Of a DNA stretch of 6,325 bases, positions 1 to 6,325 are shown one piece after another (position 1 is the first letter of the stretch; each line of letters begins with the position of its first letter). The notes beneath the pieces are model-generated. The model was not told where the DNA came from and ran no database searches. It saw only the letters and a program-made list of their open reading frames with translations. Position numbers and translations under genes: made by a program. The stretch comes from a virus (taxonomy: Duplodnaviria; Heunggongvirae; Uroviricota; Caudoviricetes), in the IMG/VR virus record IMGVR_UViG_2698536657_000011, one strand, 5' to 3'.

Positions 1-44
1 TAATACACCACCAAAACCACCCGCAGGAGGTTTAACGCTACTTA

Positions 45-96
45 CTCCCCTTGATGATTTGCTTATTTTTCAATGAGTAAATCAAAACAAGGGGAG
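45..96. repeat. Imperfect inverted repeat just beyond the integrase stop codon: left arm CTCCCCTT-GA-TGATTT (45-60), right arm AAATCA-AAAC-AAGGGGAG (79-96), 18-bp AT-rich spacer. Possible att-associated site or 3' hairpin of the int transcript.
   Basis: Read directly: the 8-bp outer arms (45-52 / 89-96) and 6-bp inner arms (55-60 / 79-84) are exact reverse complements. Position next to the int 3' end is where P2-type attachment sites lie. Confidence 0.4.
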
Positions 97-116
97 CAAA
101 TAAGCACAAGTTACAA

Positions 117-1124
117 CTAATCGATGGACAGTTTATGGACACTTTCAGCCAGCGGATTAAAGCTGATTGCATCCTGTAAAAAGTCCGGCGAAAAATGCGC
201 ATACGTCATCGTTTGTTGAATCGTGGCATGGCCCAGGATTCGTTGTAGCGTAACGATATTTCCGCCATTCATCATGAAATGTGTAGCGAATGTATGACGC
301 ATGACATGGGTGGCCTGCCCTTTCGGCAAGTCCGGCTTCACCTCCTGAAGGATCTCCCGAAATCTGAGGTAATCAGCCTGGTACAACAATCCGGTTCTGC
401 GGGTTTTAATTAACGCAAGTACCGCATCAGAAACGGGAACGGCGCGAGATTTTCCGTTCTTGGTGTTAAAGAACATCACGCGGTTACCTACAATATGTTC
501 CCCACGTAAACCAGCTGCTTCACCCCACCTTGCCCCCGTGGAAAGACACAGAATGGCAACACGCCGCGCATCTCCATCGAGTCGTTCAAGCAGTCGTTCA
601 ATCTCCTCATCTGAAAGAAAGGCCATCTCTGTGTTCCTGACTTTCAGCTTACGTATTCCCCGAACCGGGTTTTCGTTATGGAACACCTCACCCTCAATCA
701 GCGAGCTGAACATTGCAGACAAGGCACACAAATCGCGGTTAATGCTGGAAGGCATTAACCCGGCCTGTAATTTGTCGGACCGGTACCCGAGCATAAATTT
801 TCGCGTCATCTGACTGGCACGAGGATCACCCATCTCACGGTTTATCTTTTCCAGTCTGACCCTGTAGGTATCCCCGTAATCCTGGTTACGACCATCAAGC
901 AGCCACCAGGCCTCTATCAGTTCGGATAACCGACGCTGATCTGCTGGCTTAGCCTGCCATGGCTTATCATGAAAATTCTGCAAAACATACCTTTCAAACT
1001 CCTGCGCCTTTGACTTCAGGGTAAAAATCTTACGAATCCGCTTTCCTTCCGTCCCTTGTGGCCTTACATCAACCTTATAACGTCCGTCTTTGAGTTGCTT
1101 AATCGACATGATTAGCCCCTCCAA
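117..1124 (-). CDS. int: Phage tyrosine integrase (site-specific recombinase), P2-Int-like, 335 aa
   Basis: Full-length ORF with GGAGGGG Shine-Dalgarno 6 nt upstream of the ATG. Catalytic-region motifs of tyrosine recombinases are visible (LSTGARWGEA; HVMRHTFATHF; LGHATIQQTMTYAHF with the terminal Tyr). Length and N-terminus (MSIKQLKDGRYKVDVRP) match my recollection of P2-type integrases. Sits next to the repressor, as in P2. Confidence 0.9.
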   Translation of the reverse strand: MEGLIMSIKQLKDGRYKVDVRPQGTEGKRIRKIFTLKSKAQEFERYVLQNFHDKPWQAKPADQRRLSELIEAWWLLDGRNQDYGDTYRVRLEKINREMGDPRASQMTRKFMLGYRSDKLQAGLMPSSINRDLCALSAMFSSLIEGEVFHNENPVRGIRKLKVRNTEMAFLSDEEIERLLERLDGDARRVAILCLSTGARWGEAAGLRGEHIVGNRVMFFNTKNGKSRAVPVSDAVLALIKTRRTGLLYQADYLRFREILQEVKPDLPKGQATHVMRHTFATHFMMNGGNIVTLQRILGHATIQQTMTYAHFSPDFLQDAISFNPLAESVHKLSID

Positions 1125-1178
1125 CGGATAAATTAACCAAACACTCCCTGCGGGATGAAACCCGCTCGATGTGTAACG

Positions 1179-1520
1179 TCAGCCAGCATTGCGGCCTGAT
1201 CGGGATGATTTTTGGGTAACGTCGATTGAAGCCAGATCGCCCTCCGACTGAGAAGATCCATCAAGAGAGAGAGCCGGGGCAATTTGCCCGGCGGCAGGTA
1301 GCGTCTTATCCTTTAACAGCCAAAACATATACTTTTCAAATCGATCTGCCTGAAGAACCGACTCCACGATTTTAGCTCTGGCGCTCTTTTGCCCTGATTC
1401 ATAATTCCTTACGGTGGCCAGAGATAACCCTGTAATTTCAGCAAATTGTTTTTGCGTTAAGCCCTCCGCCTTACGTATCTGGCGTAATTTTTCCGCGTAG
1501 TCTATTGACAAGATAACCAT
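1179..1520 (-). CDS. Immunity repressor, P2 C-like, with N-terminal XRE-type helix-turn-helix, 113 aa
   Basis: HTH signature (LTQKQFAEITGLSLATVRNYESGQ) near the N-terminus. Downstream segment FEKYMFWLL...AGQIAPAL resembles the P2 C repressor as I recall it. Co-oriented with and directly upstream of int, divergent from the rightward early genes. The only upstream Shine-Dalgarno candidate (GAGAGG) lies about 11 nt from the ATG, so the start is less certain than the ORF. Confidence 0.78.
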   Translation of the reverse strand: MVILSIDYAEKLRQIRKAEGLTQKQFAEITGLSLATVRNYESGQKSARAKIVESVLQADRFEKYMFWLLKDKTLPAAGQIAPALSLDGSSQSEGDLASIDVTQKSSRSGRNAG

Positions 1521-1623
1521 TTGAGTATTAACCTCTCGAAAAAGATAACCTTTCGATTATCTTCACAACCCAAAACAAACCTTCATAAGGTGCAATAGGC
1601 GCACCTGTGCGAGAGGATAACAA
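1505..1623. promoter_or_regulatory. Lysis-lysogeny switch region: rightward early promoter candidate (TTGACA 1505-1510, TATTAA 1526-1531, 15-bp spacer) with operator-like repeats AAGATAACC at 1510-1518 and 1542-1550 and an inverted partial copy TTATCTT at 1557-1563
   Basis: Read directly: perfect -35 hexamer, 4/6 -10 hexamer, two identical 9-mers 32 bp apart, and a palindrome AAGATAA-N8-TTATCTT. A further GATAAC lies at 1616-1621 within the Shine-Dalgarno region of the first early gene. Position between divergent repressor and early genes matches P2/186 switch architecture. The leftward promoter could not be placed confidently. Confidence 0.45.
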
Positions 1624-2148
1624 ATGCGGGACTTCATTGCCGATAAAGAGTTATCTGACACCGATCACACAACTGGAGCGGCGTACATCAACGCCAATAC
1701 CAGTCAACAAGAAGCAACAGATAACAACGACGAACAAAAGCCACAGCGCACATATAAAAAAGGGGCAACCCTGCGGCTGGATGGCCCAATAGCCGGGCTT
1801 TGCTCACTTGAAAAAGGGGCCGCCTACATCGGATTAACAAAAACAGCATTACGCGCAGCTCTTCAGCGTAACCAGATGCCAGGACATAAAACCCGCTCAA
1901 ACCCTGAAGATGAGAATTCGGATGGTGTTTGGTGGTTTAACGTCAGAGAGTGGGACAAGCTGGCCGACGAACTCCCGGAATGCGAGCCACCAGAATGGCA
2001 CAACTGGAAAAGCTACTGGACATACGACCGCCAGAAAAGAAAGTTTACCCCAGCTGATAAGGAAGATTGCCAGACCGTCAATGGAAAACGGGTTTACAAA
2101 GGCAGAAAGTCAAAGCTGGAACAGAGCCAGGATGTAAACGAACGGTGA
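1624..2148 (+). CDS. Cox/Apl-like excisionase/transcriptional regulator homologue, unusually long (174 aa) with N- and C-terminal extensions
   Basis: GAGAGGA Shine-Dalgarno 6 nt upstream of the ATG. First rightward gene after the repressor, the position Cox/Apl occupies. Central segment AAYIGLTKTALRAALQRNQMPGHK...GVWWFNVREWDKL resembles the HTH and wing of Cox/Apl proteins. Family assignment is by eye, not by search. Confidence 0.55.
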   Translation: MRDFIADKELSDTDHTTGAAYINANTSQQEATDNNDEQKPQRTYKKGATLRLDGPIAGLCSLEKGAAYIGLTKTALRAALQRNQMPGHKTRSNPEDENSDGVWWFNVREWDKLADELPECEPPEWHNWKSYWTYDRQKRKFTPADKEDCQTVNGKRVYKGRKSKLEQSQDVNER

Positions 2149-2154
2149 TGATCG

Positions 2155-2550
2155 ATGAGCGGCAAAAATAAATCAGAAAAAACCGCAACCGTCCTTAAGC
2201 AGTTAAGCCTCCTGAAAGAGGAACACAAGGACGCCACGATACTGATGCATCTGGAAGGCTCACCGAAAATAACAATCACAACAACCTATAGCGAGTTACA
2301 CAAAGAGCTTGAAGGATTAATTAACTTTTGTTCAAAGCTAAAAGCGAATGAAAACATTGATGACCTGATACTTAAACCAGAAGCAGAGTTCGGACACTTT
2401 TGCGAAAGTAGAGAAAATGGATGCATCGGAATAATGCTATACGCAAGCCGTGGAATAATGATTAATCTGCCCGTTGAGCAGGCTGTGGATATATTCGGAG
2501 AAATGGCACTTAATAAAACCACTATTTACAAAAGAAAAATGCCGGAGTAA
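2155..2550 (+). CDS. Hypothetical protein, 131 aa, encoded in an AT-rich insertion
   Basis: Intact ORF with weak Shine-Dalgarno (GGTGA 6 nt upstream). Lys/Glu/Ile-rich, no motif I recognise. Base composition clearly lower in G+C than the flanks. Confidence 0.55.
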   Translation: MSGKNKSEKTATVLKQLSLLKEEHKDATILMHLEGSPKITITTTYSELHKELEGLINFCSKLKANENIDDLILKPEAEFGHFCESRENGCIGIMLYASRGIMINLPVEQAVDIFGEMALNKTTIYKRKMPE

Positions 2551-2563
2551 CCAGGCATGGTTA

Positions 2564-2758
2564 TTAGTATGTTGGTCCCTTAGAAAAGTTCCAGGAACTC
2601 TTGCGAGGGTATTTATGAAGTACTTTTTCGCGGACATCGTTAGCCAGATCTCTGATTTGATCGTGCTTATCATCAGAAGACGGAGGAACTTCGGGGATTT
2701 TATCCACGATTTCAATTACTGATTTAAGCATTTTTATTAATTCATCGTCGTAAGACAT
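2564..2758 (-). CDS. Hypothetical small acidic protein, 64 aa, convergent with the 131-aa gene
   Basis: Canonical AAGGAG Shine-Dalgarno 6 nt upstream of the ATG at 2758 (minus strand). Start chosen at this internal ATG rather than the track start at 2791. Stop codon lies 13 bp from the stop of the convergent gene. Confidence 0.5.
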   Translation of the reverse strand: MSYDDELIKMLKSVIEIVDKIPEVPPSSDDKHDQIRDLANDVREKVLHKYPRKSSWNFSKGPTY

Positions 2759-2865
2759 TGTTATCTCCTTTTTCTGGTTGTGTGGAAACACCAGAATACC
2801 ACGCGCCGGGCGTGGTTAAACATCCCGGCACTGATTTTCATTTAACTTAAACGGGGTTTTTCGAT

Positions 2866-3204
2866 ATGACACAGAGACGCAGCTTCCGCACTGGCACAGA
2901 ACGCCACGCAGCCCGTTTCTCAACCAGCGCATCACGCAGCAACTCGCACTACAGCCTGCAGGAAACGCACGCCACACCTGACGGGCATCTGGTTAAACAA
3001 ACCGGTAAACACACCTGGCTGATTAATGATGCCGGAATTGTCATACACAGAGGCGCACGCAACCCGATTACCGGAAATACCTGTTACTCCCTGACTCGCG
3101 GAGATGAGCAGTTCGGGCAGGATTTCACCCTACACGAAGCATTAAGAACGGCAGACCGGTTAATCAGCGGTCGCAGTTTTCAGCACCCGGAACATCGCCG
3201 CTGA
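2866..3204 (+). CDS. Hypothetical early-region protein, 112 aa
   Basis: Intact ORF, weak Shine-Dalgarno. Composition returns to the GC-richer background. First gene of a run of co-oriented, closely spaced ORFs. Confidence 0.55.
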   Translation: MTQRRSFRTGTERHAARFSTSASRSNSHYSLQETHATPDGHLVKQTGKHTWLINDAGIVIHRGARNPITGNTCYSLTRGDEQFGQDFTLHEALRTADRLISGRSFQHPEHRR

Positions 3205-3223
3205 TAAATAAAAGGATTCAGCC

Positions 3224-3466
3224 ATGATCGAAGCCTACAAAATACTTATTAATAATGCGTTGCAGCGTTATCACTTCGAACTCGCAAACCGGGGTGTAAC
3301 CCGGGACGAAGGACTTCGTAACTCACTGCGGGGCGCAATTATGGGACTGTATAACTGCGCACTGGGCAGCGATGACCGCGAAGCACTGGAAGAATTAAAA
3401 GTTATTGTGGCCGAACTGTTTGAAGGTGAAATCGTTGAGCCTTATTTCACAGAGGTGGCAGCATGA
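3224..3466 (+). CDS. Hypothetical early-region protein, 80 aa
   Basis: AAGGA Shine-Dalgarno 7 nt upstream. Stop TGA overlaps the start of the next ORF (ATGA at 3463-3466). Confidence 0.6.
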   Translation: MIEAYKILINNALQRYHFELANRGVTRDEGLRNSLRGAIMGLYNCALGSDDREALEELKVIVAELFEGEIVEPYFTEVAA

Positions 3467-3588
3467 GCGTATTTCTTTCATGGGTGATTCTGATTATTTC
3501 CGTGCTTATGGCGATTGGCATTATGCGAATTATCGAAGCGCTGAAAAATATCGAATCTTTATTTACTGGCGAAGAACGCCGTAAATAA
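3463..3588 (+). CDS. Small single-pass membrane peptide, 41 aa (MSVFLSWVILIISVLMAIGIMRIIEALKNIESLFTGEERRK), not in the supplied ORF track
   Basis: Hand translation. GAGGTGG Shine-Dalgarno 5 nt upstream; ATG overlaps the preceding stop. About 20 hydrophobic residues followed by a charged tail, typical of a small transmembrane peptide. Confidence 0.45.
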   Translation: MSVFLSWVILIISVLMAIGIMRIIEALKNIESLFTGEERRK

Positions 3589-3667
3589 ATAACCAACCGG
3601 ACAGAAAACATTAAAACCATCCGCATCTGCGGAGGGCTTCACTCAATCCAGAAACGGAGAAACAGCT

Positions 3668-3946
3668 ATGAGCATCAATACACCTACAGAAATAAACAAA
3701 CTATTTACCGACCCGGCGCATATTGAATTTACGCAAAAAACGCTGACTGAAATAACCAATGTACTGGATGAAAGAATATCAGAAATAGATAAAGACAAGC
3801 ATTTTGCCACCTACATGGCCCTGCAAATGCAAAGCATGGCAATGGTGACAGCAAAACAGACCATCAGTGAACTCTATATGAAAAACCTGCGCCTCGAGCG
3901 CGAACTGGCAGAACTCCGGACACAGTCCGGCCAGTTTTCAGCGTGA
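3668..3946 (+). CDS. Hypothetical early-region protein, 92 aa
   Basis: GGAGA Shine-Dalgarno 7 nt upstream of the ATG. C-terminal part is helical-looking (LRLERELAELRTQ). Confidence 0.6.
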   Translation: MSINTPTEINKLFTDPAHIEFTQKTLTEITNVLDERISEIDKDKHFATYMALQMQSMAMVTAKQTISELYMKNLRLERELAELRTQSGQFSA

Positions 3947-3957
3947 GGGGCAGGTCG

Positions 3958-4200
3958 ATGAACAGCATATTTACCGCCACCATGCTGACGCGTTTCACCG
4001 ATGCCGTGGGCCACGAGTTCATGGTGGAAAGTCATTTGATCACAACGACCACGCCGTGCCCGTCAGACGCTGATTATCTCTACATCCATCTGGCTGACGG
4101 AACACAAATCACCGCGATTGCCAGTACCGTTCGCGAAGTAACGGCCATCAGAGGGGCATGGAAATCAGAAACACAAGCCCACGGAGAACTGCGGCCATGA
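3958..4200 (+). CDS. Hypothetical early-region protein, 80 aa
   Basis: Start set at the ATG at 3958, preceded by GAGGGG, rather than the GTG at 3943 in the track. Stop overlaps the next start (ATGA at 4197-4200). Confidence 0.55.
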   Translation: MNSIFTATMLTRFTDAVGHEFMVESHLITTTTPCPSDADYLYIHLADGTQITAIASTVREVTAIRGAWKSETQAHGELRP

Positions 4201-4409
4201 TCAGCAAGTACACCACCAACGCACGTAAACCCGGTAAAGACGCACGCCACCACATCGCCGTACTCCGCAATCTGTTACTGGAGGAAATCGACGACTTCAC
4301 GGCAACGCTGAGCGGTCCGGGCGCACCAGTAACACCAGGTGAGATCCACCGGGACCTTAAACGCCGTATTGAAAACGCCATTGATTACACCCTGAACCCG
4401 ACTGAATAA
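4197..4409 (+). CDS. Hypothetical small protein, 70 aa; paralogue of the C-terminal domain of the 4698-4997 product
   Basis: Start set at the ATG at 4197 (ATGA overlap, GGAGA upstream) rather than the track start at 4158, which lies inside the previous gene. Shares the motif E-I-x-DF-x-ATL-x-x-PG-x-P-x-TP-x-x-I-x-x-x-L-x-x-RI with the gene at 4698. Confidence 0.55.
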   Translation: MISKYTTNARKPGKDARHHIAVLRNLLLEEIDDFTATLSGPGAPVTPGEIHRDLKRRIENAIDYTLNPTE

Positions 4410-4434
4410 CCGGAACTGCAAAGGAGATCTCACG

Positions 4435-4701
4435 ATGACCATTCTGGACTACATCGCAGCCAATCCGGGGTGCAGCGGAAGTGAAATCGCCGCAGCACTG
4501 AATACCCCAACCACAGCCATTAATGCTGAGTTACGCCGACTCTGGCGCGGCGGCTTAGTCATCAGAACAAACCGCAGCACAGGTGGTCGCGCTCGCAAAA
4601 CAGGAGGCCAGGCTTCTTACCACGTAAACCCGATGCCGTTCGGGTGTAGCAATCCACTTGCTCACATGTTTAACCAGCTACTGAAGGAAGCCAGAGCATG
4701 A
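4435..4701 (+). CDS. Small winged-helix-like putative DNA-binding protein, 88 aa
   Basis: Strong AAGGAGA Shine-Dalgarno 7 nt upstream. Segment SGSEIAAALNTPTTAINAELRRLWRGGLVIR has a helix-turn-helix plus wing pattern. Stop overlaps the next start (ATGA at 4698-4701). Confidence 0.55.
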   Translation: MTILDYIAANPGCSGSEIAAALNTPTTAINAELRRLWRGGLVIRTNRSTGGRARKTGGQASYHVNPMPFGCSNPLAHMFNQLLKEARA

Positions 4702-4997
4702 GCACCATCAACCACCAGAAGCTACGCGAACTGGCATTTGCCCTGCAACGAATGGCAACGCCTCAAAAATTACTGGCATTTCGCGCAATGCTCTCGCCGT
4801 CTGCTGTGCTGGCACTGCTGGATGAGCTGGAGCACGCCAGAACCACGGCTCCTGCCATTCGCCTGACGCTCCATCATGAAATCGCTGATTTCTGCGCGAC
4901 GTTGGAGTCGCCGGGCGAACCGGAAACGCCGGAAGCAATACAGCAAGAGCTGCTGCAACGCATTGACAAGGTTTTTGATTTTTTTCTGAACCAGTAA
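4698..4997 (+). CDS. Hypothetical protein, 99 aa; C-terminal about 40 aa paralogous to the 4197-4409 product
   Basis: GAAGGAAG Shine-Dalgarno upstream. C-terminal HEIADFCATLESPGEPETPEAIQQELLQRIDKVFDFFLN aligns with EEIDDFTATLSGPGAPVTPGEIHRDLKRRIENAIDYTLN. Confidence 0.6.
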   Translation: MSTINHQKLRELAFALQRMATPQKLLAFRAMLSPSAVLALLDELEHARTTAPAIRLTLHHEIADFCATLESPGEPETPEAIQQELLQRIDKVFDFFLNQ

Positions 4998-5114
4998 GAA
5001 ACCAGAACATGCACACACAAAAAAACCGCTTGCCATGCCGCAATCAGTCAGGTTACATTCCCGCTGCACCTCATAAAACGGGTGCCGGGATTTCCACCCC
5101 GCCGACTACAAGAG

Positions 5115-5145
5115 CGCACAACCGCGCCAGCGGTTTTTTTGTGCG
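5115..5145 (+). terminator. Putative Rho-independent terminator or attenuator: stem AACCGC/GCGGTT (5120-5125 / 5130-5135), loop GCCA, then a 7-T run (5134-5140); outer arms CGCACA/TGTGCG (5115-5120 / 5140-5145)
   Basis: Read directly. Lies about 120 nt downstream of the stop at 4997 and about 170 nt upstream of the next start. The GC stem is short, so strength is uncertain. Confidence 0.4.
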
Positions 5146-5261
5146 TACTGTATCGCCACGTCTTTTTCGCGTCAGAATAATGGCGGGGCGTACGGGGCCG
5201 ACTTCGGTCGGGCCGGGATCTCTTGTAGCCGGTTGTGGAAACCCTGTACGTCTCGCCACCC

Positions 5262-5292
5262 TGAGTTTTCCACCTCCGGATGGTGAGTTTTC
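5262..5292. repeat. Perfect 9-bp direct repeat TGAGTTTTC (5262-5270 and 5284-5292), spaced 22 bp, flanking a small palindrome CACC-TCCGGAT-GGTG
   Basis: Read directly. Two-helical-turn spacing immediately upstream of the gene at 5320 suggests a paired protein-binding site. Confidence 0.45.
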
Positions 5293-5319
5293 AGAACTTA
5301 CTACAAGAGGCCAAACACC

Positions 5320-5547
5320 ATGGCAAACCGCAAACAACAGCGCGCCCGCGCTGAGCGTCTTCACACCCGGACTGAAATCAACCGCAGACTCTGGCGCGCA
5401 TCACGCGTCGCGCAAATCATGTACGTCAACATGCTGCATGAACACGCACACGCGCTGTCAGACCGTTACTGTGCCGCCGTCTTCAGCTACCTGGCGGATG
5501 ACCTGGCAGAACTGCAGGACCTTATCAACCAGCAACACCACCACTAA
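5320..5547 (+). CDS. Hypothetical basic protein, 75 aa, with C-terminal QQHHH
   Basis: AGAGG 9 nt upstream of the ATG. Preferred over the overlapping 206-aa track ORF (5009-5629), whose translation is Ser/Thr/Arg/Pro/Cys-rich and looks like an off-frame read of GC-rich DNA. Confidence 0.5.
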   Translation: MANRKQQRARAERLHTRTEINRRLWRASRVAQIMYVNMLHEHAHALSDRYCAAVFSYLADDLAELQDLINQQHHH

Positions 5548-5615
5548 ACAACATCCTGAAGCTATCCCGCACCCGTGCGCGGGAGGCTTCCGCACGTCTG
5601 TTACCGGAGGTTCTC

Positions 5616-6032
5616 ATGAAGAGCGTTAAGGGACTTTCAGATATTCAGGATTTTTTTAACTGGATGTGGGCAGTGGATCCCCGGCTGGCTTCCCGCCTGA
5701 ACGACTGGCACGACTATTACCGCCGCGCCTGTAAACGGGCCGCCAGACGCGTCACCACATACGGGGATTTCTCCTTCACCGTTGACGACCGTTACCGCGT
5801 GGACGTGAAAGGTGATGGTGATGGTTTTGGTTTATTTCACATCAACGGAACCGACAGCACCGCCATCAGCTGGTCGTCGTCAGAGATGACGCTTGTTCTG
5901 GAAATGACAACGCACAGCGTGGCCGTGAAAGGCATATACACCGCAGAAGACTTTATCGGTGAATATCAGCGCCTTCTCGTGCTGTACCGCGCGGCGTTTC
6001 AGGCGGCGACTGCCGGGGAGTGCGACGCATGA
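5616..6032 (+). CDS. Hypothetical protein, 138 aa
   Basis: Strong GGAGG Shine-Dalgarno 5 nt upstream. Stop overlaps the next start (ATGA at 6029-6032). Contains a GDGDGFG segment; no family recognised. Confidence 0.6.
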   Translation: MKSVKGLSDIQDFFNWMWAVDPRLASRLNDWHDYYRRACKRAARRVTTYGDFSFTVDDRYRVDVKGDGDGFGLFHINGTDSTAISWSSSEMTLVLEMTTHSVAVKGIYTAEDFIGEYQRLLVLYRAAFQAATAGECDA

Positions 6033-6325
6033 GCGACCATAACGCACAACTGGCGTACCCGTGGAACGCCCCGCTACCGGTTATCGATCCTGAAACATTC
6101 GGCAGAGCGCAACCAACCGCATTGCGCCAGGCCATTCAGAGCTACATCAACGAAGACATTCGCATTGATGCAAGACTGGATGAAGAGACCGTCGACTTCC
6201 TGACAAACACAGACGAAGGCAAGCGAATTAATTCGCATCTTCACCACGACGAAGAGCGTCGGATCAGACTGGAAAAACTGGCGCGGCACAAACACGAGAA
6301 TCCGCCAACACTGGTATCTGAAGCC
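6029..6325 (+). CDS. Hypothetical protein, N-terminal 99 codons only; ORF runs off the window end
   Basis: GGGGAG upstream; ATG at 6029 overlaps the preceding stop; open through 6325 with no stop. By synteny with P2-type early operons it could begin a larger replication-related gene, but I cannot support that from sequence. Confidence 0.5.
   Translation, partial: MSDHNAQLAYPWNAPLPVIDPETFGRAQPTALRQAIQSYINEDIRIDARLDEETVDFLTNTDEGKRINSHLHHDEERRIRLEKLARHKHENPPTLVSEA

Follow-up and report, generated by a model that had tools for sequence, protein, structure and literature searches.

The 6,325-nucleotide DNA analysed here (IMG/VR virus record IMGVR_UViG_2698536657_000011), hereafter called the window, covers the regulatory and early genes at one arm of an Escherichia coli P2-family prophage (Peduoviridae, P88/Xuanwuvirus-like) adjoining dmsA. 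Between its cox gene and a gene of the DUF4761 family lies an AT-rich segment (2149-2865) carrying two convergent genes, designated orfA (131 aa) and orfB (64 aa). The interval from cox to the DUF4761 gene is a variable and dispensable slot, for which at least six fillings plus an apparent empty state were found. The segment is probably, though far from certainly, a rare allele of a two-part accessory module that P88-like and related P2-family prophages carry at this place, in which an accessory early gene stands against a moron-type cargo gene expressed in the lysogen, the two being expressed in a mutually exclusive manner. The AT-rich locus is an ordinary kind of prophage cargo and no new system. 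The features of the slot are as follows.

2121-2148, plus strand: left boundary of the variable slot, within the last ~25 nt of cox
2155-2550, plus strand: orfA, second in the early (Pe) operon, an open reading frame (ORF) of 131 aa; RefSeq WP_062857813, hypothetical protein
2551-2563: stop-to-stop gap of 13 bp
2548-2563: weak hairpin TAACC-N6-GGTTA, not a terminator
2564-2758, minus strand: orfB, ORF of 64 aa; RefSeq WP_044188229, with an identical start
2765-2770, minus strand: Shine-Dalgarno sequence AAGGAG of orfB, 6 nt upstream of the ATG
2793-2820, minus strand: predicted leftward sigma-70 promoter of orfB, with the -35 box TTTAAC (2820-2815), a 16-nt spacer and the extended -10 box TGgTATTCT (2801-2793)
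2799-2829, minus strand: element E, a palindromic 31-nt sequence, GCCGGG-N8-CCACGC-CCGGC-GCGTGG, which overlaps the predicted promoter
2866-3204, plus strand: DUF4761 gene, the conserved right flank of the slot (Pfam PF15958, E 5e-48)

Boundaries, contents and composition of the slot

In blastn comparisons, similarity to all dmsA-type relatives ends at 2118-2123, at the 3' end of cox, regardless of the slot content, and returns at 2872-2882, at the start of the DUF4761 gene. Both breaks are sharp, and the limits of the segment proposed from the sequence, 2149 and 2865, lie near these homology edges (~2121-2123 and ~2872-2882). The window type combines the rightward 131-aa gene with the leftward 64-aa gene. 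In three E. coli genomes the 131-aa gene is accompanied by a rightward gene of 172 aa and a leftward gene of 107 aa, and in locus L003 this 172/107 pair replaces exactly the interval 2558-2768 of the window; homology of the 107-aa gene to orfB was not supported (BLAST E >1). The cassette designated type C consists of a 140-aa rightward and a 63-aa leftward gene. LZSFT34 contains solely a 64-aa rightward gene, phage P88 (strain UMNK88) solely a rightward gene for a 68-aa hydrophobic protein, and MSB1_4I a leftward gene of 136 aa plus a rightward gene of 87 aa. In one Salmonella relative the slot is apparently empty, and a 92-aa ORF at the cox position (putative cox) abuts the DUF4761 gene. The alignment with related prophages that had been suggested as a check shows the interval to be variable.

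The sharp drop in composition reported in the original prediction was reproduced in both sliding-window GC and third-position GC (GC3). Recounting gave exactly the same figures, 20 G+C of 60 at 2281-2340 and 38 of 60 at 4801-4860. The segment, the lowest-GC 717-nt stretch of the window, has a GC content of 40.6% versus 51.1% in the remainder; it falls among the lowest 56 of 5,609 overlapping 717-nt intervals, and the lowest interval not overlapping it has 43.4%. GC3 is 0.42 for orfA and 0.37 for orfB, with most neighbours at 0.51-0.65. Shorter low-GC patches also occur elsewhere in the window, namely a 41-aa ORF at 3463-3588 (38%) and the spacer between the repressor gene C and cox (40%). GC contents of 37-44% were found in every allele of both orfA and orfB, which makes the composition an old property of the module and no mark of recent import.

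The segment had been described as a compositionally foreign, self-contained insertion, a description that does not hold, since all alleles share the same low GC, orfA begins 6 nt past the cox stop codon on the same strand, and the family resides at the same position in most relatives. Most related prophages do have the two genes at this position with the same composition, but no known core function could be assigned to them.

The proteins encoded by orfA and orfB

The 131-aa plus-strand ORF and the 64-aa minus-strand ORF with its AAGGAG ribosome-binding site are as originally predicted, and the orfB start agrees with that in RefSeq. Direct searches of 5.8 billion clusters with orfA and orfB returned matches limited to near-identical E. 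coli proteins. An exhaustive phmmer/HMMER search of 1.84 billion representatives with orfA gave two convincing matches, one near-identical and one distant (P0006; 135 aa, 29% identity, E 2e-11), the other weak matches being long repetitive proteins. OrfA, P0006 and the 140-aa type C protein, which is found at the same position in the common ST131/UTI89-type prophages, align over their full length. The profile of this family retrieves 38 clusters, which come only from E. coli, Salmonella or Citrobacter and are all labelled hypothetical. No match to orfA came from a tblastn search through 50,697 phage records. In two within-type comparisons the ratio of non-synonymous to synonymous substitution rates (dN/dS) of orfA was 0.19 and 0.30, and orfA is a real gene under purifying selection.

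The prophages carrying the orfA family differ in integrases, repressors and cox length (93-175 aa), and their sites include dmsA, citrate synthase (gltA-like), ppa/mazEF, MFS and 2-Hacid_dh. In every locus examined the orfA-family gene is located between cox and DUF4761. OrfA is most likely a lineage-specific, non-core accessory early factor.

The orfB product was described as acidic; it is near-neutral, with a pI of 6.05, a net charge of -1.3 and 12 D+E against 11 K+R, and the nearest of its divergent homologues has a basic pI of 9.1. As read from the sequence, it is predicted to consist of a helix, a Pro-rich linker and a second helix, with a conserved KYP..S.W.F tail. OrfB shares 39% identity (E 1e-15) with the 60-aa partner of the P0006-type orfA, and a profile match (83% probability, E 1e-5) links it to the 63-aa type C partner; the residues shared across alleles follow the pattern MS.D...KYP..S.W.F. 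Since synonymous sites between the alleles are saturated while the reading frame and these residues are kept, selection acts on the protein, and by this comparison orfB is a real gene. It is a small soluble protein and most likely acts by binding another protein, either a host protein or one from an incoming phage.

Variants of orfB are found in some strains (proteins P0003, P0004 and P0005), with a lost stop codon (74 aa), a truncation (55 aa) or a frameshift (106 aa), which suggests that the gene decays occasionally. In the complete genome NZ_CP148318 (hit H15) one of the two genes is annotated and the other is not.

Neither protein had been recognised in the initial inspection, and the database searches gave the same outcome. 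Pfam, PHROGs, NCBIfam and PADLOC returned nothing significant for orfA, orfB, 31 members of the orfA family and eight alternative cargo proteins; in PADLOC-DB, 0 families were matched by orfA, orfB or any of four alternative cargo proteins, no known function of the alternative cargo emerged from Pfam, NCBIfam or PADLOC, and profile searches of PDB sequences gave no match for orfA or orfB. An AlphaFold2 model of orfA built with the family alignment is an alpha-beta structure of moderate confidence (predicted local distance difference test, pLDDT, 71.6; predicted template modelling score, pTM, 0.69), comprising a helix at 3-23, two strands, a helix at 45-63, a low-confidence part at 72-90, two strands, a helix at 107-120 and one strand; the single-sequence model reached a pLDDT of 38. 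Foldseek searches with the orfA model found no fold match and no DNA-binding protein (best E 0.27 in PDB and 0.11 in BFVD).

A function in defence, superinfection exclusion or toxicity, put forward in the original prediction, found no support in Pfam, NCBIfam, PADLOC or the fold searches. It is quite improbable that the locus is anti-phage defence or anti-defence cargo, with one or both proteins guarding the lysogen against unrelated phages, or with orfA disarming the defences of the host at an early stage of infection. Anti-defence factors are typically small soluble proteins made early, and the pattern of presence, absence and replacement is as in hotspots; PADLOC, Pfam and NCBIfam, however, offer no match for orfA, orfB or the alternative slot cargo, and the proteins are very small and have no enzymatic or sensor domain. 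P2-like prophages are known to carry defence systems between integrase and primase, and many hotspot genes of no assigned function prove defensive in tests with P4 satellites (PMC13586616), while the present slot lies outside the classical P2 moron positions A-Q and G-FI (PMC3573123, PMC9122126).

Exchange of partners and frequency of the alleles

A census with hidden Markov models (HMMs) over all fetched loci identified 24 distinct orfA/partner combinations, of which 17 have a partner of the orfB family and 7 do not. The P0006-type orfA is also paired with unrelated leftward genes of 78 aa and 155 aa. Conversely, orfB-family genes without orfA are present in loci L027, L055 and L122. In one type A allele pair the synonymous divergence (dS) is 0.36 for orfA versus 0.03 for orfB, as a result of recombination. 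The unrelated partners, the occurrence of orfB without orfA and the uncoupled dS values indicate separable modules that are usually linked but form no obligate pair, and the two genes thus do not constitute one unit as first proposed.

These data also bear on the possibility that orfA and orfB are a cognate effector-inhibitor pair serving kin exclusion or toxin-immunity. OrfA would then be an early lytic effector and orfB an inhibitor made in the lysogen, neutralising the matching orfA from a superinfecting relative or from leaky self-expression, with the diversification of alleles reflecting an arms race over specificity. In no fewer than three deeply divergent allele pairs the two genes have diverged in step; comparison of types A and P0006 gives a dN of 0.621 for orfA and 0.622 for orfB. 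Type C is likewise divergent in both genes, and the opposite expression logic of the two genes would suit an inhibitor produced in the lysogen. Equal divergence is, however, also predicted by physical linkage alone, and co-occurrence is not obligate: the P0006-type orfA is found with the 78-aa and 155-aa genes and the window-type orfA with the 172-aa and 107-aa genes, L027, L055 and L122 have orfB-family genes alone, and recombination has uncoupled the two histories. No toxin, antitoxin or defence model was matched in Pfam, PADLOC or NCBIfam. This explanation is very unlikely.

The 78-aa family that replaces orfB has a further location in another P2-like element, the prophage-like element by cpxP in E. 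coli 81009 (L019, 2760-3091), where it lies between repressor gene and cox. There, a 74-bp leader/promoter segment 91% identical to positions 2763-2840 of the window precedes the unrelated 78-aa leftward gene, so that the leftward unit is not tied to a single site among the early genes. The L019 element appears partly degraded and contains several pseudogenes. Locus L122 (2678-2926) may hold a fourth allele pair, as its orfB-like gene shows 29% identity (BLAST; HMM E 3e-5) and the neighbouring ORF resembles orfA, with 25% identity to type C, below the family HMM threshold.

The frequency of these alleles was estimated in 5,426 complete E. coli genomes, with each set counted separately and clones included. 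The cox gene of the window type is present in 326 genomes and the type C cassette, at >=99% identity, in 271, the sampled carriers of the latter including several ST131 strains and UTI89. The orfA allele of the window is rare (11 genomes, 8 of them with orfB), and the P0006 type was found in 2. A scan of genome contigs with DUF4761 returned one locus.

Convergent arrangement and predicted transcription

The gene order in every locus examined is cox (plus), orfA-family gene (plus), leftward gene (minus) and DUF4761 (plus). All 24 orfA/partner combinations are convergent, with stop-to-stop spacings from -50 to +19 nt; the spacing of 13 bp given for the window was accurate. The small hairpin noted at the stop codons is present in the sequence, but shuffled sequences fold equally well (z -0.29), and it has no T-run. 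As the terminator scan also detected no terminator-like site between orfA and orfB, a role of this hairpin as a bidirectional terminator was ruled out.

When the spacer separating the leftward gene from DUF4761 was scanned leniently, a leftward TGnTATTYT motif scored best in each of the allele contexts considered (6/6), even in type C, where the remainder of the spacer is unrelated. By chance, 0.49 copies of this motif would be expected per whole window. From this predicted autonomous promoter the orfB transcript would start near 2786 and would run antisense into orfA. No rightward promoter-like site was detected between orfB and DUF4761 in the window by either of the two scans, so that early transcripts from upstream of cox very likely cross orfB in antisense to reach DUF4761, as had been anticipated.

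Terminator-like sites are located inside cox (1779-1766, minus strand), where one could end the leftward orfB transcript ~790 nt past the stop codon, and inside orfB (2681-2693, plus strand), in the path of early transcription. Two such sites were found in the window versus 2.3 expected by chance.

These features are consistent with the following scheme. OrfA would be transcribed together with cox from the early lytic promoter, and would then be made solely on infection or induction. The leftward moron-type cargo position, here occupied by orfB, would have an extended -10 promoter of its own and is expected to be on in the lysogen, where the early promoter is repressed. Since the 13-bp gap contains no terminator, each transcript would proceed in antisense into the other gene, making expression of the two mutually exclusive. 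In the lysogen, leftward transcription may also damp leaky expression of orfA and cox, whereas after induction early transcription would override orfB.

The same arrangement could be regarded as a module for lysis-lysogeny control, in which the leftward promoter acts as an establishment or antisense promoter, like 186 pE or lambda OOP. The transcript, antisense to orfA and cox and directed toward C and int, would favour lysogeny, orfA would be the controlling early factor, and the act of transcription would outweigh the small proteins encoded. The position mirrors that in phage 186, where, according to the annotated record, cII follows apl and a leftward promoter points back toward cI. In every family member, whatever the protein, the leftward unit has no terminator and its end abuts or overlaps the rightward gene before it, and the module is present in most relatives. 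On the other hand, none of the 31 orfA-family members has a helix-turn-helix, CII or CP76 match in Pfam, and the alpha-beta model of orfA found no DNA-binding match. The slot is apparently empty in the Salmonella relative and is filled by an unrelated rightward gene with no leftward unit in P88 and LZSFT34, showing the module to be dispensable for the switch. The retention of 39% identity between orfB alleles despite saturated synonymous sites indicates that the protein matters. Such a control function is unlikely, and the scheme of an early accessory gene opposed by lysogen-expressed cargo is preferred.

Element E, a conserved palindrome at the predicted promoter

Most types of the cassette carry element E, and five leftward genes with no relation to one another have it conserved in their upstream region. 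Its stem shows a symmetric change from CCACGC/GCGTGG to CCATGC/GCATGG, and its general form is GCCGGG-N6-9-CCAYGC-CCGGC-GCRTGG, often with a T-run after it (consensus TTT(T/C) after the stem). A left-anchored scan indicated that the core stem CAYGC/GCRTG is kept, that the loop and the outer pair vary, and that the possible GCCGGG-CCCGGC pairing is sometimes broken. The leader region folds with a z-score of -2.46.

A search of viral contigs gave at least 120 matches to the palindrome, more than 100 of which also have the upstream GCCGGG box. The 106 distinct contexts among the matches listed are mostly short divergent intergenic regions, often by a small gene, with median distances of 71 nt to the start of the same-strand gene downstream and 54 nt to the start of the opposite-strand gene upstream. 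The element is not confined to P88-like phages, and spans several types of temperate phages, including those with LexA-type CI repressors. In four loci (L030, L082, L091 and L131) it is present in two copies 0.6-1.3 kb apart, and in L091 an 87-aa-type gene lies on the opposite strand between the copies. Among E. coli genomes, where examined, the near-identical copies searched for lie in or beside a P2-like prophage region. Identity with a host repetitive extragenic palindromic (REP-type) repeat is unlikely, given that near-identical copies, to which this search was limited and which exclude diverged ones, occur in only 13 E. coli genomes.

Scanning of the whole window against Rfam identified only C4 and isrK RNAs, both outside element E; neither the element nor the orfB leader is in Rfam, the best match within 2700-2900 scoring 17.7 bits versus a threshold of 74.2. 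Element E was also ruled out as a C4 RNA target, as the target 9-mer is located solely at 5106 and 5301. No mention of the element sequence, the protein accessions or DUF4761 was found in the searchable literature.

In the 186-like contigs L072, L091, L117, L119 and L120, element E lies 17-21 nt past the stop codon of a CII-type gene of 168-173 aa and points back into it, which is the position of lambda OOP. This placement would favour the control function discussed above (OOP: PMC7067206), whereas the absence of element E from type C, the commonest cassette, speaks against it. In phage 186 itself, cII is not followed by element E, and the tR1 of that phage differs from it in sequence.

Element E may serve as a promoter-internal operator, as an attenuator or terminator in the leader, or as a linker for recombination where the module ends. 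It is rather unlikely that it represents an undescribed switch, an alternative-stem attenuator or an operator, governing swappable lysogen cargo in many enterobacterial temperate phages (P88-like, 186-like and those with LexA-type CI), with the orfB family acting as an exclusion or immunity factor against orfA-carrying phages.

Comparison with known systems

In transcriptomic data, morons are recognised by genes that lie antisense to lytic genes and have a separate promoter (Owen et al. 2020, PMC7067206). Like such morons, for example STMMW_20121 of ST64B (PMC7067206), orfB is a small, variable and AT-rich gene opposite a lytic operon, with a predicted promoter of its own. Unlike them, it has no terminator and abuts a convergent early gene, its expression in the lysogen is predicted, and its position is held by alleles of one family in most relatives. 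OrfA lies within the operon and is hence no moron. Of the proposal that the segment is a moron, the part concerning the leftward gene, which is replaceable by unrelated genes and has a predicted promoter in 6/6 contexts, can be retained, and the part concerning a two-gene unit cannot, as orfA belongs to the operon and no terminator is present.

Several observations weigh against the interpretation as a module of early gene and moron-type cargo. OrfB has no terminator of its own, which a classical moron carries. The predicted promoter is a weak match to the consensus (3/6 in the -35 box and 4/6 plus TG in the -10 box), and a stricter promoter scan returned not a single promoter. The overlap of element E with this promoter could impose regulation that is unforeseeable from the present scheme. 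Recent import marked by low GC was ruled out, the low GC being family-wide, and no sequence, profile or predicted-fold search gave a hint of protein function. Finally, the cassette family is seemingly the commonest filling among relatives, given 271 genomes with type C versus 326 with the cox type (sets counted separately), and it could have a semi-core regulatory role rather than being cargo.

P2 has two classical accessory positions, A-Q with old/tin and G-FI with Z/fun (PMC9122126; PMC3573123), and according to a 2026 survey 8% of the defence systems of P2-like prophages are located in the integrase-primase interval (PMC13586616). The cox-DUF4761 slot falls within the broad limits of this interval. 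Similar to these hotspots, it is bounded by recombination and its unrelated cargo genes interchange; it differs in lying directly after cox inside the early operon and in its cargo of 60-155 aa with no recognisable defence domain.

The module resembles the 186 apl-cII-pE region and lambda OOP in having a gene after Cox/Apl and, by prediction, a leftward promoter from which transcription would proceed toward the repressor, in antisense to early genes. However, orfA has no similarity to CII and no helix-turn-helix, whereas real CII-type genes were recognised at other loci. The leftward promoter is located downstream of orfA and not upstream, the leftward unit, unlike 186 pE and lambda OOP, encodes conserved proteins, and the module is dispensable in some relatives. 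With toxin-antitoxin and effector-immunity pairs, orfA and orfB share the organisation as two small adjacent genes, the parallel divergence and the opposite predicted expression states. In contrast to toxin-antitoxin pairs, they are convergent and not co-transcribed, do not co-occur obligately and contain no toxin or antitoxin domains.

Other features of the window

Strain JNEC-KY174 is 99% identical to the window across 13-6325 and 100% identical across 2100-2900. The genes that surround the slot are the following, with further early genes after the last one.

117-1109, minus strand: integrase
1179-1520, minus strand: P2 C-type helix-turn-helix repressor
1624-2148, plus strand: cox, a long Cox-family gene (PHROG 23196 match, E 3e-95)
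3224-3466: DUF4754 gene

The Pfam Phage_Cox score of cox, 27.4 bits, is marginally below the cut-off of 27.5 bits. The hydrophobic 41-aa ORF at 3463-3588, the second low-GC patch (38%), overlaps the stop codon of the DUF4754 gene by ATGA and is conserved, relatives being annotated with a protein of 37-41 aa, which one phage record names a putative membrane protein.

Further downstream, isrK (RF01394, 5066-5140, 63.9 bits) and a C4-type antisense RNA (RF01695, 5176-5263, 78.6 bits) are encoded just upstream of a 'derepression protein' gene (5320-5547). The C4 RNA includes CTCTTGTAG (5220-5228), and its complement CTACAAGAG occurs within isrK at 5106-5114 and again at 5301-5309, the latter copy lying 11 nt upstream of the derepression ATG; 3 occurrences were counted versus 0.02 expected. 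The layout looks like that of the RNA-controlled antirepressor module of the P1 c4/ant type. A 206-aa ORF at 5009-5629 is almost certainly spurious; it spans the C4 and isrK RNA genes, overlaps the derepression gene out of frame and has no RefSeq call.

Significance of the cox-DUF4761 slot

The slot directly after cox would be a third, previously unnamed accessory position of the P2 family, divided into a rightward sub-slot within the operon and a leftward autonomous sub-slot. If the locus confers no phenotype, it is one further pair of prophage ORFans. Any phenotype, be it exclusion, defence or lysogeny stability, would touch a large share of clinically important strains, since type C is carried by 271 of the 5,426 E. 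coli genomes, including ST131 and UTI89. The always-convergent, terminator-less layout may offer a clean natural case for transcriptional interference between lysogenic and lytic transcription. Element E is the most promising lead, as a testable candidate for a control signal shared by prophage cargo genes.

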